This document shows positions 13,299-36,781 of a stretch of DNA of 64,000 nt, piece by piece. Position numbers and translations under genes: made by a program. Position 1 is the stretch's first letter. Each line of letters begins with the position of its first letter. Location: NCBI GenBank assembly GCA_041671645.1, contig JBAZBD010000001.1, positions 85,561-149,560 on the forward strand. Reading direction: 5' to 3'. Under the pieces are notes generated by a model that was not told where the DNA came from, ran no database searches, and worked only from the letters and a program-made list of their open reading frames with translations. This stretch comes from Patescibacteria group bacterium (GTDB taxonomy: Bacteria; Patescibacteriota; UBA1384; XYA2-FULL-43-10; 1-14-0-10-43-13).

Positions 13299-13399
13299 TA
13301 CTTCGCCGAGCTGACCTTATAAATTTTGGCACGGCTGATCTGTTGCTGTACTTTGGTATCAATGTTATAATTTCCCTAGAGATTAATTTGGAGGGGATA

Positions 13400-13819
13400 T
13401 TGAGATTTAAGGTTCCGCAAAATATCGACATGCAGGATCGCATTTTGGGGCCACTGACCATGGTTCAATTTATCTATGCCGTGGTCGGATTTGGCATTTG
13501 CTACGCTATATTCTCGGCCATACCTGCGCCGCTCTCCTATCTGCTGGTCATACCAATCGGCCTTTTTGTCGTATGTCTCGATTTCGTCAAGGTCAACGAG
13601 AGGCCTTTCCTAAACTTTTTCATGTCAGCGATCCAATTCGCCGGTTCGCCCAAACAAAGGTTTTGGAGCCAGGGCAGCGATTCAGATATGGAAGTGGAGA
13701 TTTATCAAGCCCAAGTCCAACAAACAACCCATCCACACAAAGATATTAGCCACGCCGAGATCGAAGCCCTGGCTGGGAAAATAGACACTATTTCAGGCAA
13801 ACAGATGATTGAAAGATAG
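13400..13819 (+). CDS. VirB3/PrgI-like small two-TM membrane protein
   Basis: Two hydrophobic helices (FIYAVVGFGICYAIF and LLVIPIGLFVVCL), size, and position immediately upstream of VirB4. The likely start is TTG 13400 after GGAGGGG (or ATG 13430). Confidence 0.5.
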   Translation: MRFKVPQNIDMQDRILGPLTMVQFIYAVVGFGICYAIFSAIPAPLSYLLVIPIGLFVVCLDFVKVNERPFLNFFMSAIQFAGSPKQRFWSQGSDSDMEVEIYQAQVQQTTHPHKDISHAEIEALAGKIDTISGKQMIER

Positions 13820-13824
13820 TTTTT

Positions 13825-14811: not shown

Positions 14812-16714
14812 TCCTGTCCAGCCGGACGCTCAAGCCCCAGCCCCAGTTCCACAGGCTCCTCCGGCCGATGCTAGAGCGATTGCAAACCAGAACCTGAAGT
14901 CCAGAGAGAAAAGCTCGATGACTCCAGACGAATTTTGGAACAAAAAGGCAGAAGCGTCCAAAATCAAGAGTGGGGCGACCTCAGTTCGAGATATTGTCGC
15001 ACCTGCCTCTTTCGCTGTTTCGTCCAATTTTATCCAAATCGACAATTATTTCGTCAAAACTCTCTTTGTCTTCACCTACCCCCGGTATATCGAGACGAAT
15101 TGGCTCTCGCCAATTATCAACTACGATATTTCGATGGATATCGCCATGTATATCCACCCGATGGAGACCAGAGACGTCATGACCGAGCTCAAGACTCAAG
15201 TTGGTAAGCTCGAGTCCACCCTTTCAATCGAGCGGGAAAAGGGCCAGCCCAGAGACCCAGAAGTCGAGACCGCGCTCGGTGACGTTGAGGCGCTTCGAGA
15301 TGTTCTCCAGCGTGGCGAGGTCAGATTATTTCAATTTGGGCTTTACTTCACTATCTACGCCGGCTCAGCCGAAGAACTTCGCACCGTCATGGATCAGCTC
15401 GAATCAACCTTGGGCGGACTCCTGATTTATACCAAAGAGACACTTTTCCAAATGGAGCAGGGCTTCACTGCCACTTTGCCTCTGATGCAGGACAAGATCA
15501 ACGTCCTTCGCAATTTGGACACCGCCTCTCTCTCCTCTACTTTCCCCTTCGTCTCGAGCGAATTGACCCAAGACGATGGAATTCTGTACGGAATCAATCG
15601 CCACAACAATTCCCTAATTATTTTCGATCGATTTTCTCTTGAAAACGCCAACTCTCTAGTCCTGGCCAAATCCGGCTCGGGTAAATCGTACTTGGTCAAA
15701 TTGGAGGCCTTGCGCTACTTGATGCTTGGCACCGACGTAATCGTGATCGACCCAGAAAACGAGTACAAAACTCTTTGCGATTCCGTCGGCGGTAGTTACT
15801 TGGATATTTCGTTAAACTCCGACAAACGAATTAATCCGTTCGACCTCCCAATCAACCCCTACGAAACAGGCGAAGACGTCCTCCGCTCTAATATCGCTTC
15901 CCTCCATGGCCTGATCAATATCATGGTCGGTGGCCTCACCCCAGAAGAAGACTCCACCGTAGACAAGGCTCTTTATGAGACTTACGCCATCAAGGATATT
16001 ACGACCGATCCAGAAAGCCAGACCAATCAGCCTCCTCTGCTTCAGGACTTCTTCAATATCCTCTCCAACATGCAGGGCACTGAATCGCTTCGGGCCAGAC
16101 TGGTCAAATACACCGAGGGCACCTACGCCAATCTTTACAACCAGCCGACCAATTTTGAGCTCAAAGAAGGTTTCGTTTGCTTCTCTGTCCGCGACTTGGA
16201 AGATCAGCTCCGCCCAATCGCTATCTATACTGTCCTTGATTATATCTGGACCAAAGTCAGAATGAACCGAAAACAGCGCATCATGATCGTGGATGAAGCC
16301 TGGTGGATGATGCAATATGAGGATTCTGCCAAGTTCCTTCACGGCCTGGCCAAGAGAGCAAGAAAATATAACCTTGGGCTTACAATCATCAGTCAGGACG
16401 TCGAGGATTTCTTGGGTAGCCGTTATGGCAAAGCCGTCTTGGCCAACTCCTCAATGCAAGTCCTGATGAAACAATCGACCGCTTCGATCAATTTGATCGC
16501 TGATGTTTTCAATTTGACTGAGGGCGAGAAATATTTGCTTCTCGAGTCTGATGTCGGAGAAGGTCTCTTCTTCGCGGGCTTGAATCACGTAGCTTTCAAA
16601 GCGATTGCTTCCTACACCGAAAATGAAATTATTACTGTCGAGCCAGAAGAGCTGGCAAAACAGGGGCCAGAAGATGCTGTAGCGGCAGCAGACCCTAACA
16701 CACCAACCCAATGA
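14780..16714 (+). CDS. virB4: VirB4/TraE-family T4SS ATPase, middle and C-terminal ATPase portion
   Basis: Walker A AKSGSGKSYLV and Walker B IMIVDEAWWMM. FVKTLFVFTYPRYIETNWLSPIINYDISMDI matches the VirB4 middle region. It starts with a P/Q-rich low-complexity stretch in a different frame from the upstream fragment. Confidence 0.85.
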   Translation: MTDQNPNPQPNPVQPDAQAPAPVPQAPPADARAIANQNLKSREKSSMTPDEFWNKKAEASKIKSGATSVRDIVAPASFAVSSNFIQIDNYFVKTLFVFTYPRYIETNWLSPIINYDISMDIAMYIHPMETRDVMTELKTQVGKLESTLSIEREKGQPRDPEVETALGDVEALRDVLQRGEVRLFQFGLYFTIYAGSAEELRTVMDQLESTLGGLLIYTKETLFQMEQGFTATLPLMQDKINVLRNLDTASLSSTFPFVSSELTQDDGILYGINRHNNSLIIFDRFSLENANSLVLAKSGSGKSYLVKLEALRYLMLGTDVIVIDPENEYKTLCDSVGGSYLDISLNSDKRINPFDLPINPYETGEDVLRSNIASLHGLINIMVGGLTPEEDSTVDKALYETYAIKDITTDPESQTNQPPLLQDFFNILSNMQGTESLRARLVKYTEGTYANLYNQPTNFELKEGFVCFSVRDLEDQLRPIAIYTVLDYIWTKVRMNRKQRIMIVDEAWWMMQYEDSAKFLHGLAKRARKYNLGLTIISQDVEDFLGSRYGKAVLANSSMQVLMKQSTASINLIADVFNLTEGEKYLLLESDVGEGLFFAGLNHVAFKAIASYTENEIITVEPEELAKQGPEDAVAAADPNTPTQ

Positions 16715-16715
16715 A

Positions 16716-18161
16716 ATGCCTGACCTCGATGTCTCAAAAGTTGCAGGCGGGTTCAAGATCCAAAAATATCTGATTCCGATCGGCGGATTTTTTGTCGTCA
16801 TGCTTTTCTCTGTGATCGGTTTTTCTTTTTTTGGGATAATGAGGGACAATCGAATTCCCGAAGTGACACCCATGACCTCAATTTCTGGCGCATCTGTCAC
16901 CTGTCAGGACTGGGGCGCAGGCACAAAGGGTGCCGTCAATTTCCAGGAAGATATTACATATGCTGCCAACAATTCCAAGATCCAGCCAGCTCTGCTAGGC
17001 GCGATTTTTTCGGCTGAGCATGGAGGCTGGCCAGTTTCAAATTGGGCTACTGACGACTATACGACACCAAACCAAACAAGCGGTGCGATGGGCCCGTTTC
17101 AATTCATGCCTGGTACATGGGCTGAACAGTGCAAAAAATACAATAACGATCAGGTTAAAAAATTAGGCTTAGCCCCAATCGCAGATTGCGGTCCGGATAC
17201 CGCCAAGGATTTCAAATCTGCGTCCAAAGTCTCAGCCTATTATCTGAAATATCTGGCCGGCCGGATTACGAAGAATAGTAAAACTGCTGAAAAAGCTGAT
17301 ATTCAAGGTATAGCCGTTTCTTATAACGGTGGCCCAGGAACTTACGATGATTGGAAAGACTCTGGATTTGCGACCCTAAATAGCGAATCCAGCGGATACA
17401 AAACGAAGGTTTGGGATCGCTTTCAGGTTCTATACAAAGGGTGCTCCTCCAATGACGCTACCAATCTACCGACAACTATCTCCTCCTTTGACACTTCATT
17501 TATGAACGCAGAGCCGCTGAAGAGTTGGCTGAAGAATCGACCCAAGATTAACACACAGAGTCAGACCGCCACAGGCATTACTCTCCACTGGACGGGAAGC
17601 TGGGACAAGAATGTGACAGCAGAGCAGGCAGTCAGTAAGTTGATAACCGGTTGGTACAATCGTGATACGGAGACAGACGGCACGAAGTCTTCGGTATTTA
17701 ACCATCTGGTGATTGATCCGGCTGGCAAGGTTTGGCAGCTTATCCCGCTAGATGTAAGACAAGCTGGTTCGGGCAAGGGAACAGTAAATAATATTAGCGC
17801 CAATGACTTCACTATCGGCATTGAGATAGCAGGCACGGGGCCGGCAGATGTGGGGCCCGACACTGCCGCCTACAACGCAGCCCTTACTACTGTCGAAAAA
17901 CTGTTATCCGAGATTCCAACCATCAAGAACGACAGAGGCAATGACCTTAATTTCAAGGCTAAGTCTGGAATATTCGGTCACTTCCAAACCGCAACTGCGA
18001 CAAGCACGAGCACAGTTGGCTGTTCAAGCGCCAAGGATGACCCTGGGCTGGCCTTCATGAAGGAACTTTGGGATGACCTCAAGATTTGGCAGGGGCTCCG
18101 GACAAATGGCAACGGTTGTTATTTCGAAAATGGAAAAAAGAAATATTACCCACCAAGATAA
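16716..18161 (+). CDS. Bifunctional peptidoglycan hydrolase: SLT lytic transglycosylase plus N-acetylmuramoyl-L-alanine amidase (amidase_2/PGRP) domains; VirB1 functional analogue
   Basis: SLT motif AIFSAEHGGW...GAMGPFQFMPGTW. The C-terminal amidase_2-like region is NHLVIDPAGKVWQLIP...FTIGIEIAG. An N-terminal TM anchor is present. Confidence 0.7.
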   Translation: MPDLDVSKVAGGFKIQKYLIPIGGFFVVMLFSVIGFSFFGIMRDNRIPEVTPMTSISGASVTCQDWGAGTKGAVNFQEDITYAANNSKIQPALLGAIFSAEHGGWPVSNWATDDYTTPNQTSGAMGPFQFMPGTWAEQCKKYNNDQVKKLGLAPIADCGPDTAKDFKSASKVSAYYLKYLAGRITKNSKTAEKADIQGIAVSYNGGPGTYDDWKDSGFATLNSESSGYKTKVWDRFQVLYKGCSSNDATNLPTTISSFDTSFMNAEPLKSWLKNRPKINTQSQTATGITLHWTGSWDKNVTAEQAVSKLITGWYNRDTETDGTKSSVFNHLVIDPAGKVWQLIPLDVRQAGSGKGTVNNISANDFTIGIEIAGTGPADVGPDTAAYNAALTTVEKLLSEIPTIKNDRGNDLNFKAKSGIFGHFQTATATSTSTVGCSSAKDDPGLAFMKELWDDLKIWQGLRTNGNGCYFENGKKKYYPPR

Positions 18162-18201
18162 GTTCATATTTCGATGATTTTAGGGTAAAATTATAGTAGA
18201 G

Positions 18202-18248
18202 AATTCTTAGTTAGTAGTTATTAATTTTTATTCAATTTTTAATTTATA
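18202..18248. repeat. AT-rich repeat family member flanking four-helix-bundle gene (left)
   Basis: aattcttagttagtagttattaatttttattcaatttttaatttata is about 85% similar to the 36782 repeat. Confidence 0.6.
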
Positions 18249-18611
18249 ATGTCAAACCCCGACATCTTAAATCTGGAAGAAAGAACCGCAAAATTTGGTG
18301 AGGCGATAATACATTTATGCCAAGAATCAAAGGTAACAATTATTACCGAGCCAATTATACGACAGATAATACGTTCAGCCACGAGTATCGGTGCAAATTA
18401 CATGGAGGCGAATGGGGCCTGCTCAAAGAGTGATTTTAGAAATAAAATCTTTATCTGCAAGAAAGAGACAATGGAGACAAAACACTGGCTGAGAATGCTA
18501 TCGTCAGCTTTACCAGACAAATCCGATGAATTGCGAGAGTTATGGAAAGAAGCGCAGGAGTTAACTTTGATATTTTCTAAAATTGCCGGGTCCTTAAAAT
18601 CTAAAAATTAA
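18249..18611 (+). CDS. Four-helix-bundle protein (23S rRNA intervening-sequence protein family, TIGR02436-like)
   Basis: QIIRSATSIGANYMEANGACSKSDFRNKIFICKKETMETKHWLRML matches the family core (SIGANxAEG...SKxDF...KE..ET..WL). Confidence 0.7.
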   Translation: MSNPDILNLEERTAKFGEAIIHLCQESKVTIITEPIIRQIIRSATSIGANYMEANGACSKSDFRNKIFICKKETMETKHWLRMLSSALPDKSDELRELWKEAQELTLIFSKIAGSLKSKN

Positions 18612-18655
18612 TAATTGATTAAAAAATAGAAATTAATAAATAAGAATTAATTTGA
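18605..18655. repeat. AT-rich repeat family member flanking four-helix-bundle gene (right, inverted and degenerate)
   Basis: Its reverse complement aligns to the left flank (aattctta...ttattaattt...caatt.ttaattt). Confidence 0.5.
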
Positions 18656-19923
18656 ATCTAGAACTGAAAAAAATTGCCTTGTCCCTCTATGTCACGATAT
18701 TTATTGTTGTTTTGGCCATTTTGGGTGCGATCTGGTATTTTACTCGCTCTTTCGCCACGATCAAGGTCTTCCCTGTGGTGGCGACCGTGCGGATAGACGG
18801 CAAAATCTACAAAACTCAAAACGGCACAATCAAGACAATCCTTGAGCCTGGCGTTCATGAAGTTGTAGTTGAGGCGCCCGACAGTATCGGCACCAGCCAA
18901 AAGGTAGATCTGGGCCGAGGATCGAACAAAGAAGTCAGCGTTGCACTGGCCGAGATGCCCAAACCGATCAAAATCGCCTCTGACGCCAAGATGACTTCTC
19001 GCGGTAATGACTTCAATAGCTTCTACTATCTTGGTGAGAATAGCCGAACACTTTTCCGAGTCAAACTCGGAATCGATGACAAGACAGGAGAGATCAAGAC
19101 GCTAGAACATCGCTCTATCACCGATCCGAAACTATCGAGCAACAAGGAGATTGCCTGGTCACCCTCGGGGCAGCTGGCTCTCTTTCGCAAGAACAACAAT
19201 GACATCAACCTCTTTGACTTTGCCAAATATGACTTTGTGAATCAGACCGAGAGGCTCTGGGGCAAGAATATCGGCAGCATGGCCTGGGCACCAGATGATT
19301 CCGAAATCGCTTACTACTACAATCCTGGCACAGGAGAAGAGTCGCTCATCCTTTCAAACCTCGGCAACACCGACATGACTCGGGTAGCCGATTTTGGAGC
19401 TTATAATATTAACAACCCGATATTACACTGGTCGCCAGATTCCGAGTGGCTCTTGGTCATTCCTCGCAACAGCGATTACGCTACCAACAAGATTTATCTC
19501 TTCAATGCCTACGCTCGATCGATCAAGGAGTTCACGGCCGAGGGAGATCAATTGGACGCCTCTTTCTCGCCAGACTCGAACAAAGTCCTTTTCTCGACCT
19601 ACCAGAAGGATCCCAGCAGCTCCATCCCGGGCACCCTCTCGATCATGGACAAAGACGGGCAGAATCTCAAGAATTTGAATTTGAGAGCAGACTTGTCCAA
19701 AATTGTTTGGGCTAATGACTCCAAACATATCGTTGTCTCTACTTACAATCCTGATCTCAAACACGATGAAATCTTCCGATTCAACACCGATACGGGCGAG
19801 AAAGCTGGTTTTATTCTCCGCAACCTTGGGGATATCACGATCAACAACCTTGTTTTGTCCGATGATGAGAAGATGGTAATATATGAGACAAAGGACGGGG
19901 TATACGCCGTCAAAGTGAATTAG
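18652..19923 (+). CDS. Membrane-anchored PEGA-like plus TolB/PD40 beta-propeller repeat protein
   Basis: N-terminal TM, PEGA-like VRIDGKIYKTQNGTIKTILEPGVHEVVV, and repeated PD40 motifs (AWSPSGQLALF, AWAPDDSEIAY, HWSPDSEWLLV, SFSPDSNKVLF). TTG start. Confidence 0.6.
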   Translation: MNLELKKIALSLYVTIFIVVLAILGAIWYFTRSFATIKVFPVVATVRIDGKIYKTQNGTIKTILEPGVHEVVVEAPDSIGTSQKVDLGRGSNKEVSVALAEMPKPIKIASDAKMTSRGNDFNSFYYLGENSRTLFRVKLGIDDKTGEIKTLEHRSITDPKLSSNKEIAWSPSGQLALFRKNNNDINLFDFAKYDFVNQTERLWGKNIGSMAWAPDDSEIAYYYNPGTGEESLILSNLGNTDMTRVADFGAYNINNPILHWSPDSEWLLVIPRNSDYATNKIYLFNAYARSIKEFTAEGDQLDASFSPDSNKVLFSTYQKDPSSSIPGTLSIMDKDGQNLKNLNLRADLSKIVWANDSKHIVVSTYNPDLKHDEIFRFNTDTGEKAGFILRNLGDITINNLVLSDDEKMVIYETKDGVYAVKVN

Positions 19924-19933: not shown

Positions 19934-21787
19934 TTGGCAGATACGGGACGCAAAAAATTTTTTGATGTTGTATTTAAGAGAAAAGTCAGTCAGCCTAAGC
20001 CGGCTGGCAGTTTTGCTGATGAAGTCGCACCTTACGGCAAATCTCTAACCGACGAGGAAATCGAGAAAGACGAGAAGAATATGGCCCCGCAGGGGGGATC
20101 CTTTGGGGCGAGTCCCGTTGGGGCGGGCACGATCGGCACGCCAAGACCAGGCAGGGCTAATAATCCAAGCGGCGGGGAAGCTTTTGGCAGAGATTTAAAC
20201 GCCCGGTCTTCTTCAGAAAATCCAAATGCGAATGGAGAGAAAGAGGAAAATGAGGATGAAGATGAAGACCCAGAAGACGAGGGTGGAAATGATAGCGATC
20301 AGCCAAAGAAGAAAAATCCTGAGTCCGAAAATTTAGAAAATGAAGCCTTAGAGAAAGCCCAGCAAGAAGAAACTGATCGGGTTGCCAAGAAGGAGGGCCG
20401 TTCGGATCTCCAACAGCCAGATCCAATCCAATCGGGCCATATGAATGCGGAGCCCCAGAAACCAGGGGCTGAGGGACAGAAAAATGGAGACACTGGCGAC
20501 GATGAATCGAGCCAAAAAGCCAAACAAGCTGGGCAAGAAGGCACACCGAAGCCGGCAGCCGCTCAGGGGAACACTGCCGCCCAAAAGGTAGGCCAAGGAG
20601 CGAAGACGGCTGGTAAAGCCGTTAGTAAAGTGGCCGCTGGCGCAGGTCGAGCTATTATGGCCTTCTTCGCCACGCCTCCAGGCCAGATCGTCTTAATCGT
20701 TATCATCTCAATAATTCTAATTGCCATCTTGGTTGGCGTATCTATGAACGGAAGCAAGAAGCAAAACGCACTGAACGGTACAGGCGGGGCTCCGATTGAA
20801 ACTAGACCGATCTCAGACGACGACGCACTGACCAAGCTTCTGATGCTCTCGGGGGATGCCAAAGTCCAGACCGAAATCTCTGACGCACAGATCAACAAAC
20901 TAATCGCTGCTCTCGACGTCGCCATAGCCGATGAAAAAATTGGCGATTACACCGTCCCTGACGGTAATAATAAAATTCCGCTCAAGGATGCCCTGACTGC
21001 GGTCAGAGCGAAATTTACAGCTGCTTCCAAGCTCACCGACGCAAATCAAAAGAAGACTGATCTCCAAGCCGCAATCAAATCCCTACAAGCGCTAGCGGCC
21101 AAGCTTAACACTTCCTGCTTACAGCTTCGGTCTTCCACTTTCTCAAATGTTGCGAAAGCCAACGACAAGCTCGGTCTTCTGACTGGGTGGTTCGTCAGAA
21201 AAGATGGCGCAAAGATTCCAGCGGACAGCTCAATGTGTCAATTCTTTCTCTTCGTAGAAGAAAGCAAAGCCGACAGTCTGCTCAAGGAGAACGGCGTAAG
21301 TATCCTACAACTTTCCTCAATCGTTGGGGCGCACGATATTTATGTGACCAGCAGTATGAACAGCAAAAATGCGGCCATAAACGCTAGTCAAGACAACATC
21401 TGCGTGAAATGTGAGACCAGCTACACCCCAGCTTGCGACAAGAAGTATAATATTACATACAAAACCCAGGGCGGCCAATCGGCCACAGGTTCATGGGCTT
21501 GTATCATGTCTCAGCATGCGACCGGGCATGGCGTTGATATAAATAATCTGAATACAGAAACCGCTGAGGCGAAACAAAAATCAGAAGCCTTTGGCCGATG
21601 GGTGATACAACATTTGCCCGAGTTAAATACAAAGAAAATACTGATTCACCAGTTGATTATCGGCGACAGAGAGTGGGTGCGCGACAACGTAGACAAGACA
21701 GATGAACAAAAGACAGGCCCAATGACAAAAGTCGCGGGGCATACCAACCATACCCACATCGGTTTTGGCAAATACGTAACAAAATAA
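19934..21787 (+). CDS. Hypothetical protein: acidic disordered N-terminal region, single TM, C-terminal domain with M15/VanY-like metallopeptidase motif
   Basis: The E/D/K-rich first roughly 230 aa are followed by the TM segment IVLIVIISIILIAILVGV. The C-terminus contains SQHATGHGVDIN (M15 SxHxxGxAxD-type motif) and a His-rich GHTNHTHIGF. TTG start after GGAGGGG. Confidence 0.45.
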   Translation: MADTGRKKFFDVVFKRKVSQPKPAGSFADEVAPYGKSLTDEEIEKDEKNMAPQGGSFGASPVGAGTIGTPRPGRANNPSGGEAFGRDLNARSSSENPNANGEKEENEDEDEDPEDEGGNDSDQPKKKNPESENLENEALEKAQQEETDRVAKKEGRSDLQQPDPIQSGHMNAEPQKPGAEGQKNGDTGDDESSQKAKQAGQEGTPKPAAAQGNTAAQKVGQGAKTAGKAVSKVAAGAGRAIMAFFATPPGQIVLIVIISIILIAILVGVSMNGSKKQNALNGTGGAPIETRPISDDDALTKLLMLSGDAKVQTEISDAQINKLIAALDVAIADEKIGDYTVPDGNNKIPLKDALTAVRAKFTAASKLTDANQKKTDLQAAIKSLQALAAKLNTSCLQLRSSTFSNVAKANDKLGLLTGWFVRKDGAKIPADSSMCQFFLFVEESKADSLLKENGVSILQLSSIVGAHDIYVTSSMNSKNAAINASQDNICVKCETSYTPACDKKYNITYKTQGGQSATGSWACIMSQHATGHGVDINNLNTETAEAKQKSEAFGRWVIQHLPELNTKKILIHQLIIGDREWVRDNVDKTDEQKTGPMTKVAGHTNHTHIGFGKYVTK

Positions 21788-21790: not shown

Positions 21791-24700
21791 TTGAGGGATG
21801 TGAAGAAATTTTTGCAAAAATTTGTGTTCACGCTGGTTGCGCTGATTTTGGTGTTGAACCCATATATCGAGCTCATCCCGACAGATTACTTCTCCAGCAA
21901 GGCCAAAGCGGCGATCAACGATATCCCTGATCCAGAGATCGCGTCAACCGATGAGAGCGATCATGATTATGAGGAGGAAGTAGATAGCGATTACACCCCA
22001 GAATACTCTCCGAATTTCATCCCCGACCCAGTCAAAGATGCCTTCTCCCTCGTGGTGACTGATACCACTGAGACCTTTACTGATCTTACCAGCACGAGCA
22101 GTCTGCTTGAAGATATTGGTGATGCCAAAATCATCCTGACCCAGAGTGATTTTGACGCGATCAAGGCCCTTCGTTGCATGAAGAATCTACTCCCGCCATT
22201 CGCCGAGAACATGTCAAAACTCTATGAGTTTACGATTCCCGAGGGTATCATTAATTCTAACGAACAATACAAAAACTTCCCAGCCAAAGAGGAAATTGAC
22301 GATGCAGTCTCTAGTGAGGGATCTCAAGCGACGCCAAGATTCGGCACACCCGAAGAATACCTCTCCTATCTCAAATACGGAGACTCTGGCGACCCGCTCC
22401 TCACCACAAACCAGAACAAGGAAAAATTTGTTAACTATGTTGATTCAGCCAAAGCATATTACGGCGACGATCGCTTAAGGGCAGACTGGCTTGCGCAAAT
22501 CGACAACCTTGCAGAGAACAAAACTCTCGATACCGATATAAATACTCTAGCTTGCGTCACTCGGATTACTGACGCAGAACAGCTGATGGCTCTGATTCGA
22601 GAAAGCAAAACTGATGAGACCAAGCGACAGTACTTGCTCGACAGAATCAATGAGAGTCTAGACGGACTCAAGATTGACATCCGCGCAGTCAAGGCCCTGA
22701 TTTATTTGGTTACGCCTAAGAACAAGGGAGGCGCTGGACACTGGAGAATCCGCGTCAAGAAATTCCTCCAAACTGGCCGCAAATCAGGTGAGTCTGATGC
22801 GTTGCTGACTGGAGCCGCCAAAACAGTGAACTGTGATCCGGCCAAATCCGCCGCTGAATGCGGCATGGCTCAGTACCAACCGGGCGAGGCGACGATAGAA
22901 GAGAAAGATGGTAGCGCCTACACTGCCTATCTAGAGTCTATGAACGACGGTGAGCAAAATGATTCAATGCACCAGCAGGGTCAGGCTATTGATATTTCTG
23001 AGATTGACGACATAAGATGCACGATACGGAAAGAGGTTAAGCAGTGGGGAAATGTTAAGGGCCAGAACACTCCTCAACCAACAAGACCAATTAAGTTGGC
23101 CTGGCAGACTACAGAAGGGTTCAACAAATCAGAGGGTGCCAATGACTTTGATATGATGTCTCTTATCAAATCGATGGCGACCTCCGAGGTGGTCGACTTC
23201 CTGGGCTCGATCAACGAGACTGATATGTCTGACTATGAGGGCGACCTGACCAGAGCCAGTTTTGGAGATCTAGTCAACGTAGTGGGCAAGTCCCTAATGA
23301 CTGAAATTCTCGCTTCGCCTGATCATAATTTGAAGGGCTATAGCACCGACAGCACTCTTAGAAACCTGGGTGGTATCTATATCGCTGACTATCTCGGGAT
23401 TAATCGAAAATTATTTACAGACAAACATATCAACACTCCGGGAGATCTCTTCTATGAAATCGGCCGCGGCGCGATCGAGACTCGGATGAAATTGCCTCTC
23501 AACTCACTCGACACGACCAATCCTGCCGTGCCCCTCTTCTCGACCTTGGCCCAGACAGGAACTAGGAAATTGGAGTATGAATTGGGGCTAGCCAACGGAG
23601 ATCTGGCGCGCCTAGACCCAAACTCGGTTGCCAGCATCTATATTGGCGCCCGTGTGATCGAAGGAACGCTTAATTTCAAGAAATTCGTTTGGCCAAGCCA
23701 GGACAAGCCATTTGCTGAGTTTGCCAGCACAGCAGAGGGTCTGAATTGGTTTGATCTGCTTCGGCTCAGCCCAGACACAATCGACATGATGCTTCACCTG
23801 AAGTCTGGTGTGACTGAAGCCTTGGTCAAGGGCAAGACCTTGACTCCGGCTCAGTATGACAAAATGATGAAGTTGCCCGAGGGCACGACGACAGAGTCAG
23901 TCAAGATGAACTCGGACCGATACGCTAGTATCGTTGGGCAAGTTAGATTGGATGAGACAACTTTTGGCTTTCAATACTTCGCCGCCAACGATGCCGCCTT
24001 CTCCTTGCCAACTGGGCTCTGGGCTGAGGTAATCAAATTTAGCCCAGATACTTTGCAACAGAGCCTCGCTGAAGTCGGAATTTATACGCTCTCTCGACTA
24101 TTCGGCGAAGATGATGCTTCTCCTTTGCCAAAGCTAGAAGTGGGAGAGCAGGTTGTCAGTATCCAGACCCATGAGTACGGCAAGGATGTAACTTTCCAGG
24201 CAAATGATGGTAACTTTGGTCGCTGGGTATTCCGAAGTTGGCTTCGAGACAACCTAACCAAATCAACCGAAGAGGCTTGTCAGGCGCCGGCCCGTCCGAT
24301 TGAGGTTGATGTTTCCTTTGATCAAGCTGGCGCTCAGCAGCCAAATCCAAACAGTCTGCTAGATGTTCAAGCAACTTTTGGAACCAATGTATTCAAACCG
24401 GTCAGTCTAGCTCTAGACTACCAAGTCACCTATAATCCAGCCGCCAATGGCATACCACAGCCTTCGAAAACGCTGACCAAAGACGTCTCTGAGATTAGAC
24501 CAATTTCCGAAGAAAAGGCAACGAAATATGGCTTTGTAAATCGAGACTTACAAAGAATCTTTGGCTGTGCATCAGCCAATGGGCGTGATGTCTACCAGCG
24601 GATAGGCTCTGAGCTCCTCTACACCGCCCTGATCAACCAGGCGCTGAGCGAGACTGACCGCGCCAAGATTGACATTATGGACACCGATCCTACAATTCAT

Positions 24701-27700
24701 GTTGCCAACGAAGAGATCAACTTCTACATCCAACGCATCTTCTATATTAAGAAATTGCTTGGACAGATCGACACCCAATACGGCTCAATCGTATCTGAGG
24801 GCAAAGACGACATTAAATCTTTTGTAGATCTTTCGAAACTATCTTATGACCAGCTCAAACAGGTATATGGAGACCTGACCAATCTCCAACTGTTCTCCAT
24901 CAGCAAAATAGCCGCTACCGCCTCACAGACTATGACCGATATCGACACGCTAAAACAGGTGGCCTCCGATTGGAAAGAGTACATGCGGACACGAAGGGCA
25001 GACTTGGTCGGAGATATAGCTGCCGTCAATCAGATTGTTTATCTCGTCAACGAGCTTTGGACCACTATTGCCGAGCTCGATCGTGGCAAGGCTATTAATG
25101 GTGTTGATCGTATTAAATTTCAGCAGATTGATTCTACTCCGCTACAGGAAGTCGTAAACCAGGACAGAAGACAGCAAGCACAAGAGAGATCAGACTCGGC
25201 CAAGAAAAAGGGCCTCTCTGCTTGGCAGGTTGCACAGATGATGTTCGACTGGATTGCCGGTACGATCACTTCCTCCGAGCTCTTTTATCGCCTGGGCGCC
25301 AACTCGATCGAAGCTAACATCGGCCTTCCGCCCAATAGCCTAGTCTACCTAGTCCGCAATTATGACCAAAATGGCATATCTGGCCTCGACGCCTTTTATC
25401 AATCGGTTGGCCAGGCCAGGATTGAGGAAAATTTTGGCATGCCCGCCTTCTATTTCCAGGGCAACTTTGATGCCCAGGCCAAGCCCAACTTCCAATCTGA
25501 CCTGAAGGCAGTCTACAACATGATTACGACGGATTCTGTGCTTAAGCACGATTATCCCGATCTGGCCGCACTATCCGAAGCAGACTTCCTGAAGTATATG
25601 GATAGCCTGCTCACGGCGCCGATGCTCGATTATGCCGCCGATCCCTGGATACAGCTTATCAGGACCCCCGGTAGTCCATATTCGATCAGTAGTGAGCCCA
25701 AGACCCCAGGTGATGATCTCAATGCCTACAAGGCCTTCTACAAGAAAATCGCCGATAGTCAAAAAGCTTATACCAAGAGCACGGCTCATTGGCAGGCAAT
25801 TGTTGACAATGTCGACAAACGTTGGAAAGCCAAGCGCGCCAGTGATGTCAAGGGATTGGGCAGTAGCAAGTACAGCGAATCAACAGTCCAAGACATCGTA
25901 GCAAATATCAAACAGCGCTGCTTCACTGGTGTAAACAAAGCTCAAGCGGATGGTACAGTGAAATGTCTCAATATGACTCGGTCCCCCGAGGATGATCTCC
26001 TTTTCCGTATGGGTCTCCCGCGTGGAAACTTTAACGCTATGACCGCAGAGAATTCAGTCAACAACACGTCCCTCTGGACTCGACTAGCAGGCACTACTCA
26101 GTCAATCGAGCAGGGATTCACAATCGATCAAAACGCGATCAAAGCCCTCTTTACCGGAGAAGATACTCGCTATATTAATCTTTCCCGAAAAGAGAAGCAG
26201 GTGGTCGAGGGTTCTGCTCTCAAAATCAATACCAACGTACTAAGTTTCTACGCTCAGATGCTTAATGGTGAGGTTCTGCCCAACGACACAGATCAGTATA
26301 ATTTGGACACTTGGACTCAGTACTACGTCAGCAACCCGTATGCACCGAAACAGCAAGCCAGTGAGACTTGCCCAGTTCTTTATTTGCCAAAAGGTGACGC
26401 AAGCGGCACCTTTATGGTCAATGAGACTACCCTTGAAAACAATTCATACTGCTATTATGACGCCAAGGGAAGACACTGCTTCAAGAGTTGGGATGAAGCC
26501 CAGCGCTATGCCATTGCCCACGAAGCCGACTCGATAAGACATCTGAAAGTCGTGATAGACGGCAAAGAGCAGGAAATTAGCAACAATATTCTGGGATATC
26601 TTGCCAATCAACTTGTTCTGGCCAACAATGCCGCTTTACCTGACCAAGCGACCACAGATGCCGCCGCAAATGCAAATGTCACCATCCATGGAACTATCGA
26701 ATTAAATCTGAGTGATGTCTACGCAGGACTGGTCAGATTTGTGAATGACAACTCGATGGTCGATATCTTTGGGGATAAGAACAAGAGTATAGCCATGATT
26801 TCGGCCATCGCTGGCTCGACGACTGTGCCGGCTAGTATACTAGAAAAGCTTTTTACTCGTGAACCGAGCGTAAATTCCGTCGCCACTTTCAAGAAGAAGG
26901 TTGGTGTCAAGGAAGCACAAAAAGTTGTCACTTACCAAATTTTTGGAGCTTTGCAACTTGGCCTCGCCGTTGGGCCGGACTACTTCGACGCAGGCGACCT
27001 CTATGATGTCTTGAACGGCGACTACACTGCGCTGACCAACATCGCGACCAATTATATTGATCTGAAGGCTGAGCTGAAGCCTGGCACAACACGTCTTCTC
27101 TACGAAGCTCGCAATCCAGAATCAATTACTTGCGCCCTCGCCCAAGCTGGTGGCTCAATGCTCGGTCGGATCTTTGGCCTCAACAATATTCCGCTCAATG
27201 GGATCCAAAACGTCTCATCATTTAAAGAAGCGGTCGGTCAAGCCAAGGTCGAGGAGACCCTCTCCCTGCCTCGAGGTACCTTCAGGGGCAACAATCTGTA
27301 TGAACTGCTCGACAATGTCGGACCGATCAACTTCATGATCGCCTTTAAGATACCGGTTGACCCATCAGTTGCGAATGGGATTTCTGACGATATCGACAAG
27401 ATACTCAACTCCAACACTAGCTACTCTCAGGGAGCCAATTTGGCCTATCGCTTGACTCGGGTAAGAGATGTTCTCTCGACTCGCAATATTCTTCAAAGTG
27501 ATATTGGCACAGCCATCGCCAATATCAACAGCGCTCTCAAAAATTATTTCATCAATGATCTGCTCAAACAATTTGAAAATGATCCGACCAAGATCCAAGT
27601 TGCCCTGTCGGCCCGTAATCAAAACAATAGAGATTGGTATTATGCGGTCCAGGATTTCTATCAGCAGACCAGTTCACTGGACAAAACTTTTGCGGTCAGC

Positions 27701-30700
27701 AACGGTAGCACTTATCAGCTTCTAACCAACTCGATCAAGCCAAAAACCTATATCAATCGAATTGGCGAGAATCTCATGGTCACTGCCGCCATTTCCAACG
27801 CCGCCACTCTGCTTGGGATTTCCGACGCGAAAGTTCAGGCAGCAGCCGGCGTCCTGGGTGCAATCAAGAACAATTTTGTCTGCGAGAAAAGCAAGATCAT
27901 CACCAGAGATAATTATCCATCAAACGGCGTTTCTGACGGACATTTTCTCTACGATGTGCAAGTAAACAATATCAAAAATGACTACTGGGAACAGTATCTC
28001 AGAACCGGCAAACATACTTATGACGATGTTGGCTTTCCCGTCTTGGTTTATGATGAGGTTGGCGCTGCAATCGGCTACTGTAGCGATGACACTTATGGCC
28101 AATTCGGCGAACTGTATACCAATCTTAATACCCTCTTCGGCTTCAATCTTGATGACAGGATGAATTTGCCGGAAGGCACGATCAGCAAAGTTCTATCTGA
28201 CCCCGACCACATCGTCGATAATATATTGAATATCGGACTCAGCAAACTTGACCAACAACTTGGACTTGACTATACCGTGGACGGTTCTTTCTCATTCAAT
28301 GGCTTCTGGAAAGCGACCTTTTACAAGGACGGCCAGAAGAAGGACGCAGAGAGAGAAAAAATCGACAGAAAGTGCTACAGCCAAAGTTATCCAGGGGGGA
28401 CAGACGTCGCCATCAAAACTCAGTATGACGCTGCCAACAACGATATTAAGCGATTGCTCGGAGAGTGGCCGGCCCGAGGAGCTTCACGGATCGAGGGCGA
28501 AAATTACCAGCAGTACTCGCAGAGAGTAACTTCTCAAGCCACTTTGGACGCCACTCACACTACTGAGATGCGGGACGCTTGGGTTAGCGATTGGGAAAAA
28601 TACAATCAGCAGGCTAACACTGCTAGCGGCAATATTACTATCCAAAACAATGCCTTTAATCAATGTAAGCTCGACAACAGGAAGCCAGTAAGTAACGCGG
28701 CGTTACGAGCAGATATTCTTGACTACGCCACCGGCCAACTTGTCACTTTGACTGGCAAACTACTGCGAGACGTTGTCGTTACGATTCCTGATTGCCAAAA
28801 CAATCGCGCCGCTTATCTTGACGGGGCAGGCAGCTATGACCCCGTTCTCTCCAACCAGCTTGATTATTTCGGCCAGCCTATTGGCTATGAAGAGTGCAAA
28901 GCCAAGGTCGGTGTTGTTGTTCCGAGAGAAGATTTGAAAGCACTTATCCAGGGCGACCTTCGCTATCTTTCCCCGATTGCCATGACAATCGCTTCAAACA
29001 TCGCCATGATACCGGTAGACATGTGGGGCACGGATAACTGCAATCCAGACGCCGATGGCCGATGTGAGAGTGCCGTTCCACCTCAATTCAAGCTCAGTTA
29101 CAACGACTACAAATATGCCATTTTTGGCAACGCTCAGTCCGACCAAGCGGCTCGGGACGTCGCCGCTTATAGTCACTTCAACTTAATTGAAAAAAACCCT
29201 GACGGCGTACGCATCAACTCAGGGCCGGAGTATCCTGTCTCTACTGATCCCTTCGACACGGGTCTTGGCATACTTTCAGATACCAGGGTGGCAAAAGTAG
29301 CGAATCAACCTGGCAGAGAGATTATCAACAACAAGACTGATATCTACACACAATACGGCTATACCCCAAGTAGTGCCGAGGCTGTCGATGCAATCAGCCA
29401 ACGAGCCGATTTGCAAAACAGCGTGGCCGACTTTGAAAACGCTTGCGGCATCAAGTATGGGCTTATCAGCAACAGCGCGGCGACTTGCCACAATGGGTCA
29501 CCAGAGTTTGCGGCCTATATTTCAGATAGAACTCAATTAACCGCACTAAGAGATAGGGAGACTGCGATTCTAGGCGAATCAAAGAACCTCTACCGAAACA
29601 ACTTGATGTACAAGGCGATAGACATAGCCGCCTGGAAACTTGATGGCAACGCCTATCCTGGATTTGCTCGCGCAATCGCAATCGGCACTCCCAAAATGAA
29701 GGCAGAGGCCCTTGTCACTTATCTCAAGATTGGTGCTCAGAGAGGCCATCTCTTCGGCATGGATTTCAGAGCAGTCAAAGATATCGAGCAGTGGGCCGGG
29801 GCCGCTCAATTTCTCTACGAGGCTGGGCAAAATATTCTTCGCGATACGGATACGTTTGACCCCCTAAGCACTCTTGCCAAGAATCCTAGCGCTCGATATT
29901 TCATCCAAGATTTTATCGTCTCTCGCTCAAAGGCCTGGTTTGGCTTCGAGATCCAACCAGACATGGCTGAGGGTATTATAGTCGGCATTGGTACTATGGG
30001 CTCAGCCGACCATCCTTGGGGCAATTGGGGGATCAAGGATGTCGGCATCGACAAAGTTTTTGAGGACCCGAACAACACGGGCGTCACTATTAATGTTGGA
30101 GGAGACAAGACAGTCCAGATGAAGACTCTGGGCGGAGCAACACAAGAGTATCTGGTCGACCGTCTTTTCTCCTGGGCCGACACCAAACTTGGTCTCGAGG
30201 CAGGCACTTCCTTCAAGCTCGCCAAGGGCATATATGACGCTTTCACTGCTTACGGCAAAGTATCTGCCGCCATCAAGGCCGCCAAGCTGGCTGGTTGGGT
30301 TGTGCCAAACTTGCCTCATACTGCCGCTGGCCTGGAAGCGATAGCCGACACTCTTTTCGATAAAGCAGACGCGTTAGCTTTGGATATAACAGACGCAGAA
30401 CTTTCGGCAAGCCTAACAGGGGCTGACGCTAACCAAATCGTTTATGAGAATACCGGATTTGATGGCGTAGACGCAGGAGAAAAAGCTGCCGAGGATGCCA
30501 AAGCTGCCTCTAAGACTATAAATACCGAGGGAACCAAATTCCAAGCTGCCAAAGACCTTGTTGCGGCCATAATCATTGAAATCTTAATTGGTAAAGCGCT
30601 TGGCAAAATCGTGGCCGGTTGGGAACAGGATCTTGGTATGATCCCTGGCACTCTGATGCCACTGGTTTCTGGTATTGTCACTTTCGTGTTTATCTTCGTC

Positions 30701-31282
30701 TGGAATACGGTGATGGCCACGATTGGAGCGGAGGTATTAATGCTATCCCAGGTGCCAGGACTTCAGTGGCTTGCTATAGCAATAGCCGTCATCGGTTTCA
30801 TTGGTGGGATGCTCTTTAGCACTAAATATTTCTACTGGTGTACTGCCGATGGATACTACCCAAGAGTTGGGTCTTTTGATTACAACAAGGACGTGGGTGG
30901 ATTTGGAGAAATAGGCGGACGAATCGATCGCGGCGCAGCCTTCTTGGGACCGCTCATGGCAACTTATGGCGTGAAAGTGGCACAATACAAAGCTCGCCAA
31001 TTGGTTGGCGACATGCTGGCTCTGCAAAACTCTCCTCGATTCAAAGATTCATATGGCGACGATATCGTACCAATCCAAATCATGACTGGTCGCAAAGTTG
31101 ATGTTGATTTCTGGAAAGAGAGCATTGATACCAATATGTGCAAGAAGATGCTTGATGAAGATTACATCGCCTGTGACGGCATGTGCGGCAAAGCGACTAG
31201 CGATGGCGGCTGTGTCAGTACTTCCCGTATGGGCGTCTGGGCCAATCCACAAACGATAGGCTGGACGCATATTGGATTTTAG
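21791..31282 (+). CDS. Giant (3163 aa) membrane-anchored surface protein
   Basis: Single uninterrupted ORF with an N-terminal hydrophobic signal/anchor and a C-terminal cluster of TM helices (GIVTFVFIFVWNTVMATIG, LQWLAIAIAVIGFIGGMLF). No recognisable catalytic motif; it is in an operon after the T4SS genes. Confidence 0.7.
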   Translation: MRDVKKFLQKFVFTLVALILVLNPYIELIPTDYFSSKAKAAINDIPDPEIASTDESDHDYEEEVDSDYTPEYSPNFIPDPVKDAFSLVVTDTTETFTDLTSTSSLLEDIGDAKIILTQSDFDAIKALRCMKNLLPPFAENMSKLYEFTIPEGIINSNEQYKNFPAKEEIDDAVSSEGSQATPRFGTPEEYLSYLKYGDSGDPLLTTNQNKEKFVNYVDSAKAYYGDDRLRADWLAQIDNLAENKTLDTDINTLACVTRITDAEQLMALIRESKTDETKRQYLLDRINESLDGLKIDIRAVKALIYLVTPKNKGGAGHWRIRVKKFLQTGRKSGESDALLTGAAKTVNCDPAKSAAECGMAQYQPGEATIEEKDGSAYTAYLESMNDGEQNDSMHQQGQAIDISEIDDIRCTIRKEVKQWGNVKGQNTPQPTRPIKLAWQTTEGFNKSEGANDFDMMSLIKSMATSEVVDFLGSINETDMSDYEGDLTRASFGDLVNVVGKSLMTEILASPDHNLKGYSTDSTLRNLGGIYIADYLGINRKLFTDKHINTPGDLFYEIGRGAIETRMKLPLNSLDTTNPAVPLFSTLAQTGTRKLEYELGLANGDLARLDPNSVASIYIGARVIEGTLNFKKFVWPSQDKPFAEFASTAEGLNWFDLLRLSPDTIDMMLHLKSGVTEALVKGKTLTPAQYDKMMKLPEGTTTESVKMNSDRYASIVGQVRLDETTFGFQYFAANDAAFSLPTGLWAEVIKFSPDTLQQSLAEVGIYTLSRLFGEDDASPLPKLEVGEQVVSIQTHEYGKDVTFQANDGNFGRWVFRSWLRDNLTKSTEEACQAPARPIEVDVSFDQAGAQQPNPNSLLDVQATFGTNVFKPVSLALDYQVTYNPAANGIPQPSKTLTKDVSEIRPISEEKATKYGFVNRDLQRIFGCASANGRDVYQRIGSELLYTALINQALSETDRAKIDIMDTDPTIHVANEEINFYIQRIFYIKKLLGQIDTQYGSIVSEGKDDIKSFVDLSKLSYDQLKQVYGDLTNLQLFSISKIAATASQTMTDIDTLKQVASDWKEYMRTRRADLVGDIAAVNQIVYLVNELWTTIAELDRGKAINGVDRIKFQQIDSTPLQEVVNQDRRQQAQERSDSAKKKGLSAWQVAQMMFDWIAGTITSSELFYRLGANSIEANIGLPPNSLVYLVRNYDQNGISGLDAFYQSVGQARIEENFGMPAFYFQGNFDAQAKPNFQSDLKAVYNMITTDSVLKHDYPDLAALSEADFLKYMDSLLTAPMLDYAADPWIQLIRTPGSPYSISSEPKTPGDDLNAYKAFYKKIADSQKAYTKSTAHWQAIVDNVDKRWKAKRASDVKGLGSSKYSESTVQDIVANIKQRCFTGVNKAQADGTVKCLNMTRSPEDDLLFRMGLPRGNFNAMTAENSVNNTSLWTRLAGTTQSIEQGFTIDQNAIKALFTGEDTRYINLSRKEKQVVEGSALKINTNVLSFYAQMLNGEVLPNDTDQYNLDTWTQYYVSNPYAPKQQASETCPVLYLPKGDASGTFMVNETTLENNSYCYYDAKGRHCFKSWDEAQRYAIAHEADSIRHLKVVIDGKEQEISNNILGYLANQLVLANNAALPDQATTDAAANANVTIHGTIELNLSDVYAGLVRFVNDNSMVDIFGDKNKSIAMISAIAGSTTVPASILEKLFTREPSVNSVATFKKKVGVKEAQKVVTYQIFGALQLGLAVGPDYFDAGDLYDVLNGDYTALTNIATNYIDLKAELKPGTTRLLYEARNPESITCALAQAGGSMLGRIFGLNNIPLNGIQNVSSFKEAVGQAKVEETLSLPRGTFRGNNLYELLDNVGPINFMIAFKIPVDPSVANGISDDIDKILNSNTSYSQGANLAYRLTRVRDVLSTRNILQSDIGTAIANINSALKNYFINDLLKQFENDPTKIQVALSARNQNNRDWYYAVQDFYQQTSSLDKTFAVSNGSTYQLLTNSIKPKTYINRIGENLMVTAAISNAATLLGISDAKVQAAAGVLGAIKNNFVCEKSKIITRDNYPSNGVSDGHFLYDVQVNNIKNDYWEQYLRTGKHTYDDVGFPVLVYDEVGAAIGYCSDDTYGQFGELYTNLNTLFGFNLDDRMNLPEGTISKVLSDPDHIVDNILNIGLSKLDQQLGLDYTVDGSFSFNGFWKATFYKDGQKKDAEREKIDRKCYSQSYPGGTDVAIKTQYDAANNDIKRLLGEWPARGASRIEGENYQQYSQRVTSQATLDATHTTEMRDAWVSDWEKYNQQANTASGNITIQNNAFNQCKLDNRKPVSNAALRADILDYATGQLVTLTGKLLRDVVVTIPDCQNNRAAYLDGAGSYDPVLSNQLDYFGQPIGYEECKAKVGVVVPREDLKALIQGDLRYLSPIAMTIASNIAMIPVDMWGTDNCNPDADGRCESAVPPQFKLSYNDYKYAIFGNAQSDQAARDVAAYSHFNLIEKNPDGVRINSGPEYPVSTDPFDTGLGILSDTRVAKVANQPGREIINNKTDIYTQYGYTPSSAEAVDAISQRADLQNSVADFENACGIKYGLISNSAATCHNGSPEFAAYISDRTQLTALRDRETAILGESKNLYRNNLMYKAIDIAAWKLDGNAYPGFARAIAIGTPKMKAEALVTYLKIGAQRGHLFGMDFRAVKDIEQWAGAAQFLYEAGQNILRDTDTFDPLSTLAKNPSARYFIQDFIVSRSKAWFGFEIQPDMAEGIIVGIGTMGSADHPWGNWGIKDVGIDKVFEDPNNTGVTINVGGDKTVQMKTLGGATQEYLVDRLFSWADTKLGLEAGTSFKLAKGIYDAFTAYGKVSAAIKAAKLAGWVVPNLPHTAAGLEAIADTLFDKADALALDITDAELSASLTGADANQIVYENTGFDGVDAGEKAAEDAKAASKTINTEGTKFQAAKDLVAAIIIEILIGKALGKIVAGWEQDLGMIPGTLMPLVSGIVTFVFIFVWNTVMATIGAEVLMLSQVPGLQWLAIAIAVIGFIGGMLFSTKYFYWCTADGYYPRVGSFDYNKDVGGFGEIGGRIDRGAAFLGPLMATYGVKVAQYKARQLVGDMLALQNSPRFKDSYGDDIVPIQIMTGRKVDVDFWKESIDTNMCKKMLDEDYIACDGMCGKATSDGGCVSTSRMGVWANPQTIGWTHIGF

Positions 31283-36754: not shown

Positions 36755-36781
36755 AGACGAAAGTAGTAAGTTTTTAGTTTC

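Follow-up and report, generated by a model that had tools for sequence, protein, structure and literature searches.

A 64,000-nucleotide stretch of DNA from a Patescibacteria group bacterium (contig JBAZBD010000001.1, positions 85,561 to 149,560; the whole stretch is called the window below) carries, as the last gene of an operon for a type IV secretion system (T4SS), a gene for a protein of 3,160 residues, here called the giant. It is quite possible, and we propose tentatively, that the giant is a lineage-specific accessory subunit of the chromosomal, origin-proximal T4SS of Berkelbacteria-like Patescibacteria and that it was derived from a wall peptidase. The proposal is carried by the integrity of the gene, the size of its family, its strict linkage to the operon, the fusion of a partner's module to some of its relatives, the pattern of its motifs and what we regard as remote homology of its N-proximal domain. 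From these we infer a membrane topology, the binding or cleavage of peptidoglycan, the geometry of an extended arm and a role in host contact.

Results

An intact gene with a large family

The gene is placed as follows:

21800..31282, + strand: giant gene, 3,160 aa from GTG 21800, stop codon included in the end coordinate

The open reading frame (ORF) is uninterrupted over 21791..31282 of the + strand, or 3,163 codons when counted mechanically from TTG 21791; this agrees with an earlier interpretation made from the letters alone (the sequence-only reading), which had described a single 9.5-kb ORF. GTG 21800 is the probable start, because the 3,160-aa product from that codon shows 100% identity to an independently called NCBI protein from a metagenome-assembled genome (MAG), 'hypothetical protein WC227_00520, Patescibacteria group bacterium' (P0001; P-numbers denote family protein representatives and L-numbers related loci), which is encoded on an 867,751-bp contig. 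Frameshift and chimerism, the dangers that the sequence-only reading had itself raised, were looked for and appear very unlikely, because base composition is flat across the gene (GC 0.47-0.49), homologues are collinear with the giant, many of them over 97-100% of its length, and the N-proximal and C-terminal domains are found within one ORF throughout the family. That the gene is an assembly artefact, a chimera or a decaying pseudogene has a negligible probability in view of the independently called protein, the 63 full-length collinear homologues and 187 cluster representatives, the conservation of both termini and the lack of internal stops. Tandem Repeats Finder reported no repeats in the gene, as had been said earlier, though a dispersed, degenerate motif of ~25 aa is nonetheless present.

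The 63 homologues are 2,382-3,160 aa long (with one further partial sequence of 1,762 aa) and share 25-35% identity with the giant. When 1.84 billion representatives were searched with a profile of the best-conserved domain, 187 proteins were found, 141 of them at E<=1e-10. These cluster representatives measure 1,300-3,300 aa, shorter and apparently partial entries aside, and the domain always lies near the N-terminus. Most family members have a hydrophobic segment at the N-terminus and more such segments 150-250 residues ahead of the end, and a hidden Markov model (HMM) of the C-terminal domain matched 130 of 183 family proteins. When one genome was scanned for each species, 37 loci were obtained, all from MAGs labelled Berkelbacteria, 'Patescibacteria group', unclassified 'bacterium' or 'uncultured Saccharibacteria'.

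No family was matched by the full giant in Pfam, NCBIfam (both at E<=0.01) or PHROG searches, and none by the family members tested in Pfam (63 homologues, precomputed, and 8 distant relatives). The homologies that might have overturned the sequence-only reading (RHS/YD, cadherin-like, polymorphic toxin) were thus looked for in Pfam and NCBIfam and did not appear, and the family searches and the 63 homologues uphold its view that the giant is unrelated in sequence to PrgB-like adhesins. A full-text search of the literature returned papers on the patescibacterial T4SS and general remarks on giant membrane proteins from candidate phyla radiation (CPR) bacteria; it returned no description of this family and no account of a giant gene closing a T4SS operon.

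Strict linkage to an origin-proximal T4SS

Upstream of the giant lie the following genes, assigned with Pfam and NCBIfam:

9691..12501, + strand: VirB6-like polytopic membrane protein, 936 aa, about 6 transmembrane (TM) helices, weak TrbL match (E=0.13)
13289-13819, + strand: PrgI/VirB3-like gene
13825-14811, + strand: TrsD/TraC-like VirB4 N-domain
14780-16714, + strand: VirB4 P-loop ATPase gene
16716-18161, + strand: SLT+Amidase_2 hydrolase
18249-18611, + strand: 23S-rRNA-IVP-like gene
18652-19923, + strand: TM-anchored beta-propeller

The T4SS core genes at 13289..19923 (+) show synteny across 29 loci. At three distant homologues (L001-L003) the order is VirB6-like, x, PrgI, TrsD, VirB4, hydrolase, beta-propeller, peptidase protein, giant; there the giant closes the operon and is followed by DciA/recF/dnaN/dnaA, and DciA, recF, dnaN and dnaA also lie 3' of the giant in the window. 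The positional homologues of the VirB6-like gene in L002 and L003 match TrbL_3. A same-strand VirB4 (62-87% identity) was present in 29/29 loci with at least 5.4 kb of upstream DNA, usually together with TrsD, PrgI and the propeller, and the 11 loci without VirB4 are explained by absent upstream sequence. Even a distant relative of 1,504 aa (L041) occupies the same position, in a lineage where VirB4 is unsplit (895 aa). It is clear that the association with a T4SS suggested by the sequence-only reading is a property of the family.

In the window VirB4 consists of two genes that overlap by 32 nt (13825-14811 and 14780-16714). This split is not a frameshift, since it is conserved in L001-L003 and most related loci.

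PrgI/VirB3, TrsD, VirB4 and the VirB6-like protein are encoded on one strand beside dnaA and VirB2-like pilins are also encoded, the composition of an origin-proximal MPF-FATA-like T4SS. No relaxase or type IV coupling protein was found among the ORFs scanned, which were part of those in the window. An origin-proximal, relaxase-less, MPF-FATA-like T4SS has been described for Patescibacteria (PMC12102498). The homologous origin-proximal T4SS cluster of Southlakia epibionticum, which has been cultivated, is essential (PMC10633639); among its essential products, encoded just 3' of VirB4, are a lysozyme protein and a protein of 1,113 aa that bears a Hedgehog/DD-peptidase domain (PMC10633639 supplement; PMC12102498).

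A peptidase-like partner encoded immediately upstream

The gene ahead of the giant encodes a protein that we call the partner:

19934..21787, + strand: partner gene, 617-aa ORF, upstream of the giant

Its stop lies 3 nt ahead of TTG 21791 and 12 nt ahead of GTG 21800, and the upstream stop abuts or overlaps the start of the giant in many loci. The partner has an acidic low-complexity N-region, one strong TM segment at residues 252-270 (20687-20743) and a C-terminal M15-like domain bearing SQHATGHGVDI (21509-21541) and, 70 residues on, HTNHTHIGF (21740-21766). In most relatives the slot is occupied by a protein whose C-terminal part is an M23 peptidase; the M15-like type is found there in the window and in L004, L012, L014, L019 and L002 (alignment A7). 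The A7 profile gave only three matches in the PDB, all of them M15 D-Ala-D-Ala carboxypeptidases (4jid and 4mph, E about 1; 1lbu, E=7), with SRHMYGHAADL and GHNDHTHV aligned in the case of 1lbu, and weak Pfam matches to VanY, M15_4 and M15_3.

The N-terminal module of the upstream family (tail and TM segment) is fused ahead of the giant at L031 (4386-10535), L035 (8978-15043) and L037 (9212-14935) and in 11 representatives (P0096-P0098, P0100, P0148, P0149, P0155, P0160, P0164, P0172 and P0179), with E-values of 1e-24 to 1e-6. These fusion members are shorter, ~1,900-2,650 aa, and no separate upstream peptidase gene was found at L031 and L037. Because of this adjacency and fusion, the operon can be said to encode a set of membrane-anchored wall-active proteins right after VirB4, in agreement with the essential peptidase and lysozyme proteins at that position in S. 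epibionticum.

The N-proximal domain resembles half of an M15-like domain

Conservation in the giant is highest at residues 290-650 and 3,000-3,160. The most conserved block contains the following features:

22667..23134, + strand: N-proximal conserved alpha/beta domain, residues 290-445, LAS/M15-like N-half
22964..22996, + strand: motif SMHQQGQAIDI, i.e. SxHxxGxAxD (H-x6-D), residues 389-399, with putative zinc ligands H391 and D398

The domain consists of a helix (IDIRAVKALIYLVTPK), GGAGHWRIRV, a variable insert (residues 336-382), SMHQQGQAIDI and PIKLAWQT. Its invariant residues include D293, R295, P306, K307, H314, E331, S332, H391, G394, D398, D403 and C407. H391, G394 and D398 are invariant in 63 sequences, so that the first two zinc ligands of a LAS/M15 site have their counterparts here, and the SxHxxGxAxD motif occurs within the first 700 aa in 127/167 large family members. 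SxHxxGxAxD is a hallmark of the VanY/M15 (LAS) zinc peptidases. The statement of the sequence-only reading that the protein has no recognisable catalytic motif therefore fails at the best-conserved block of all.

With the insert (residues 336-382) removed, hhalign aligned the domain to A7 over 57 columns at P=6e-5, an alignment that spans the helix IDIRVLKTLVYLV, the strand WRIKV and the H-x6-D motif. The reversed query gave P=0.76 and 24 other tiles of the giant gave P=0.0097-0.92. In view of this alignment and its controls we take the N-proximal domain to be remotely homologous to the N-half of an M15-like domain, which does not demonstrate that it belongs to M15 itself. A match of 'QGGAGHW' to RavD in the PDB profile search (E=0.2-0.85) was treated as chance.

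Membrane topology

The hydrophobic segments of the giant lie at its two ends:

21821..21877, + strand: N-terminal signal peptide or signal anchor, residues 8-26, FVFTLVALILVLNPYIELI, following MKKFLQK (hydropathy 2.2)
30554..30619, + strand: helix S1, residues 2919-2940, amphipathic and probably interfacial, followed by the conserved E..LG(L/M)(V/I)PGT
30653..30817, + strand: uncharged hydrophobic hairpin, residues 2952-3006, the putative membrane anchor (from charges and hydropathy in orthologues)

The N-terminal signal or anchor had been recognised previously and agrees with the hydropathy. In the C-terminal region the hydrophobic segments of the giant are residues 2919-2938, 2952-2976 and 2988-3006, which had been taken together as a multi-helix anchor. 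Over 27 orthologues, S1 has a median of 3 charged residues and a hydropathy of 0.88 and is probably an amphipathic interfacial helix that does not span the membrane; the hairpin, 34-65 aa long in orthologues, has a Pro/Gly turn at its centre, and the median number of charges in it is 0. A single amphipathic helix plus an uncharged hairpin is thus the better reading of the 'multi-helix anchor', and it is more likely, to judge from orthologue hydropathy and charges, that both ends of the protein are outside the cell. Since S1 would be interfacial and the hairpin would return, the C-terminal domain would lie on the same outer side as the ectodomain. The general picture of a membrane-anchored protein whose body is mostly extracytoplasmic is supported.

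A fast-evolving middle with a dispersed motif

Between the two conserved ends, islands of conservation (about residues 900-1000, 1150-1250, 1700-1850, 2100-2150 and 2600-2650) alternate with indel-rich variable stretches (for example residues 850-900, 1250-1350, 2050-2100 and 2200-2350). The 25-35% identity between the giant and its homologues, set against 62-87% for VirB4 at the same loci, indicates fast divergence of the giant. An iterated HMM identified the dispersed ~25-aa motif, consensus NLEDFFLNIGQAKIEKELGLPSGSL, in ~6 copies per protein; the copies of the giant are residues 546-570, 587-602, 614-626, 1159-1181, 1196-1216 and 1804-1828, and lie in three blocks:

23207..23764, + strand: conserved block of helical repeats, residues 470-655, in which the ~25-aa motif occurs three times
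25274..25447, + strand: two motif copies, residues 1159-1181 and 1196-1216 (iterated HMM, independent E-values 2e-5 and 1e-6)
27209..27283, + strand: one motif copy, residues 1804-1828 (iterated HMM, independent E-value 7e-9)

A second AlphaFold2 (AF2) model, besides that of the N-proximal domain, predicts residues ~520-640 as an all-helical repeat that covers the motif copies there, with a predicted local distance difference test score (pLDDT) of 85-94.

The C-terminal domain and the possibility of a divided site

The second conserved end of the protein contains:

30827..31279, + strand: Cys-containing C-terminal domain, residues 3010-3160, CTADGYYP ... QIMTGR ... GVWxNPQT ... THIGF-COOH, conservation 0.5-0.8
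31262..31279, + strand: C-terminal end motif WTHIGF (H3157), resembling the neighbour's HxH(I/V)G(F/Y)

The giant ends in NPQTIGWTHIGF and has no LPXTG. The partner family ends in HxHIGF, and the giant has WTH in place of HxH. The pattern H[IVLF]x[FYW] falls in the last 12 aa of 144/167 large family members against a per-window background of 0.09%; the full HxH is at the C-terminus in 15 of 167, and distant subfamilies end in ...DHIHVRW or ...HIHIGF. When an HMM of the C-half of the M15-like domain was used, the best match was at the C-end in 24/95 proteins, and when the C-half was compared with 27 tiles of the giant by hhalign, the best tile (P=0.0017) was aligned over the last 5 residues or columns only. 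Comparison of the whole C-terminal domain with the upstream family, M15_4 and M74 by hhalign was not significant, and a profile of the C-terminal 330 aa (A6) had no meaningful match among PDB sequences.

A separate resemblance was seen between the C-terminal consensus C.G.TRAGVW.NPQT.A.THIG (residues ~3131-3160, 31190-31279) and CQTDNRRGVWKAPANVALTGIG of the Pvc3 sheath (PDB 6j0n chain t), with E=0.41. This likeness, which centres on 'GVWkaPanVA', is probably chance.

The motifs at the two ends raise the idea that the family is a LAS/M15 domain split by an insertion of 1,000-2,800 residues, whose ends refold into one metal site. The N-half (helix, strand, H-x6-D) would then be the part near the N-terminus and the final strand, with its (H)xH ligand, would be the extreme C-terminus; both ends, predicted to be outside the membrane, would fold back together and close the giant ectodomain into a membrane-tethered loop, the opening and closing of which could couple to wall binding or to assembly of the T4SS. 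In evolutionary terms the giant and the upstream peptidase gene would be tandem paralogues, the giant having been enlarged from within. We think this unlikely. The signal at the C-end is limited to the last five residues, a spliced profile of N-half and C-terminal domain fails, and the N-site and the C-terminal His are only weakly associated in their loss (odds ratio 3.3, p=0.017), an association confounded by phylogeny and alignment failures; for these reasons the divided zinc site stays a hypothesis.

Discussion

The proposed role of the giant

We suggest that the giant would be exported by Sec via its N-terminal signal or anchor and held in the producer's own membrane by the uncharged hairpin ~150 residues before the C-terminus. 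Because of the Sec-type N-terminus and the hairpin anchor, nearly all of its ~3,000 residues are expected outside the cytoplasm. Its conserved ends would stem from a peptidoglycan zinc peptidase of LAS/M15 type, the kind of domain shared with the upstream gene, and may bind, perhaps cut, peptidoglycan stem peptides, while the fast-evolving middle, at least partly helical repeats, may be an extended arm through the wall or surface layer toward the host surface. Together with the single-pass M15/M23 peptidase protein, the SLT/amidase hydrolase and the TM-anchored beta-propeller, the giant could open a path through the wall, and the same set of proteins could anchor the VirB4/VirB6/pilin machine.

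Several results weigh against this proposal. Pfam matches of the N-proximal domain are weak (Extensin-like_C 0.063, VanY 0.076, M15_3 0.14) and short of membership in a curated family, and hhalign against the neighbours' canonical M15_4 and M74 domains was not significant with or without the insert, only the 11-residue motif being aligned. Profile searches of the PDB gave no LAS structure for the N-domain (A2), for residues 280-655 (A5) or for the spliced N-half and C-terminal domain (A8). The AF2 model of the N-proximal domain has low confidence (pLDDT 35-79) and gave no fold match with Foldseek; the AF2 models cover about 20% of the giant. There is no conserved His after D398 within the N-proximal domain, where the third zinc ligand would be expected, and the only conserved His beyond D398 is H3157 of the terminal THIGF, about 2,760 residues on. 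Since the N-proximal domain lacks the canonical third ligand and the terminal WTH has another residue in place of the first His of HxH, catalysis by the giant is doubtful. The topology, furthermore, is read from hydropathy, and S1 of the giant itself, with a hydropathy of 1.73, is hydrophobic enough for a third span, which would place the C-terminal domain inside the cell.

Alternative explanations

The surface topology and size of the giant, its fast divergence and its large indel-rich variable regions would also be expected of a pure host-attachment adhesin, whose ectodomain recognises the host surface, whose ends merely anchor it and whose linkage to the T4SS reflects co-regulation. Giant membrane proteins have been proposed as host-recognition factors in other CPR bacteria (PMC8080830), and adhesins are essential in S. 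epibionticum (PMC10633639). An adhesin pure and simple is nevertheless unlikely: no adhesin, immunoglobulin (Ig), lectin, cadherin or LPXTG features are seen in the giant or its 63 homologues, the strongest purifying selection falls on a peptidase-like His/Asp/Cys/Glu constellation, and the coupling to the peptidase protein, by translation and by fusion, is close. A different fate for the protein would be delivery as an effector or translocon, the giant or a processed part being released to the host, where the hairpin would enter the host membrane and the peptidase-like module attack the host wall, in the manner of phage tape-measure or ejection proteins or of the T4SS-delivered wall-degrading toxins of Xanthomonas. 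The Xanthomonas X-Tfe effectors have a conserved C-terminal domain, XVIPCD, and the giant has a highly conserved C-terminal domain of ~150 aa with an invariant end motif, the type of feature that serves as a secretion signal; it is also the last gene of the operon, wall-hydrolase genes adjoin it and the hairpin has no flanking positive charges. We judge delivery to be decidedly unlikely, however, as the Sec-type signal or anchor favours insertion into the producer's own membrane, no VirD4-type coupling protein was seen among the operon genes scanned, no immunity-like small gene consistently adjoins the giant (L001-L003), and neither PHROG nor BFVD showed likeness to tape-measure or ejection proteins (for BFVD, residues 280-655; with the model of these residues the best Foldseek E was 0.16 and no viral structure was matched).

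Some VirB6 proteins are extended and have large hydrophilic domains (PMC12857230), and the size of the giant, its linkage to the T4SS and its C-terminal hydrophobic helices recall such channel subunits, of which the giant VirB6 paralogues of Rickettsiales are examples. This is highly improbable: the giant has 2-3 hydrophobic segments where at least 5 are expected of the polytopic core, it does not match TrbL/VirB6, and the operon already has a separate VirB6-like polytopic protein at 9691-12501. Identity with VirB6/TrbL was therefore rejected.

Comparison with known systems

Comparison with LAS peptidases (MEROPS M15; VanY-like enzymes and the Streptomyces albus DD-carboxypeptidase, PDB 1lbu) shows that in both a helix and then a strand precede SxHxxGxAxD, and that an H-x-H-type motif comes later in the chain; the extracytoplasmic location, predicted for the giant, and a neighbourhood rich in wall hydrolases are further points in common. 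The differences are that the two motifs are about 2,760 residues apart in the giant and about 40-80 in M15, that the giant has no significant profile or fold match to curated M15 and that the first His of HxH is replaced. There is a likeness in arrangement to the VirB1-type and PrgK/TraG/CwlT-type wall hydrolases of monoderm conjugation systems and to the essential SEML1_0007 (peptidase) and SEML1_0006 (lysozyme), all of which are encoded immediately 3' of VirB4 in an MPF-FATA-like T4SS and are membrane-anchored with domains of peptidoglycan-hydrolase type. SEML1_0007 of S. epibionticum, an essential protein of 1,113 aa with a Hedgehog/DD-peptidase domain, is set beside the giant by its description. 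Those proteins are 400-1,100 aa long with contiguous, recognisable catalytic domains, whereas the giant is three times longer and mostly helical-repeat sequence of no known family, with a peptidase-like signature that is degenerate and divided.

PrgB, or aggregation substance, is likewise a large surface protein encoded with a monoderm-type T4SS, and a role in cell-cell contact is plausible for both, but the giant ends in THIGF without an LPXTG, contains none of the adhesin, Ig or polymer-adhesin domains and is not similar to it in sequence. The extended VirB6 proteins of Rickettsiales and CagY of Helicobacter are also very large, fast-evolving T4SS envelope proteins with surface-exposed variable regions; the giant differs in having neither a VirB6 polytopic core nor a VirB10 domain, in an operon where a VirB6-like protein has a gene of its own. 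Phage tape-measure and ejection proteins are long, largely helical and hydrophobic near the C-terminus, carry peptidoglycan-peptidase motifs and cross envelopes; here the giant differs by its Sec-type N-terminus, by its T4SS rather than phage setting and by the lack of a PHROG match. On this comparison the giant would be a new member among the T4SS-associated wall-active envelope proteins, and one reading of it, that of the split domain, would if true be categorically new.

The patescibacterial T4SS is the first T4SS shown to be essential to the life of its owner, an epibiont on another bacterium, and its cargo and its route through two cell envelopes are unknown (PMC10633639, PMC12857230). 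The giant family is a conserved, very large and undescribed component of this T4SS in a whole branch of the phylum, and the gene takes up about 1% of an 868-kb genome. The invariant metal-site-like constellation, the dedicated partner and the defined anchor offer experimental handles on how ultrasmall parasites might breach walls. If the divided-peptidase reading were true, it would represent an extreme case of domain insertion, of general interest for protein evolution.

Other observations on the window

Five VirB2-like T4SS pilin genes lie at 41333-44570 on the - strand, across the replication origin from the T4SS core; one of them (42388-44229) encodes 613 aa with the pilin domain at the C-terminus only. 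The beta-propeller at 18652-19923 is PD40/Tricorn-like and TM-anchored; no T4SS counterpart of it is known, and it is as strictly conserved as VirB4, being present in 31/40 related loci compared. Two operon ORFs, 7728-9686 (652 aa, several TM segments) and 12510-13298 (262 aa), match no family and may be the missing VirB8-like or coupling components.

The 23S-rRNA-IVP/Avd-like four-helix gene at 18249-18611 is found inside the T4SS operon, and its position differs among related loci. AT-rich repeats of ~55 nt flank it (18195-18250 and 18594-18672), with others at 35812-35879, 36762-36870 and 55122-55206; these further copies lie around the intergenic regions of dnaA-rnpA-yidC and at 55.1 kb. 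The idea that the gene belongs to a diversity-generating retroelement or mobile cassette was rejected, as no repeat pair of the template/variable (TR/VR) type was present and a second 120-aa ORF is unrelated. Finally, the DciA-like gene at 31313-31690 is on the + strand in the window and on the - strand in L001-L003, with 51% identity to the L001 copy; its orientation is, judging by the gene orders compared, the result of a small local inversion beside the stop codon of the giant.

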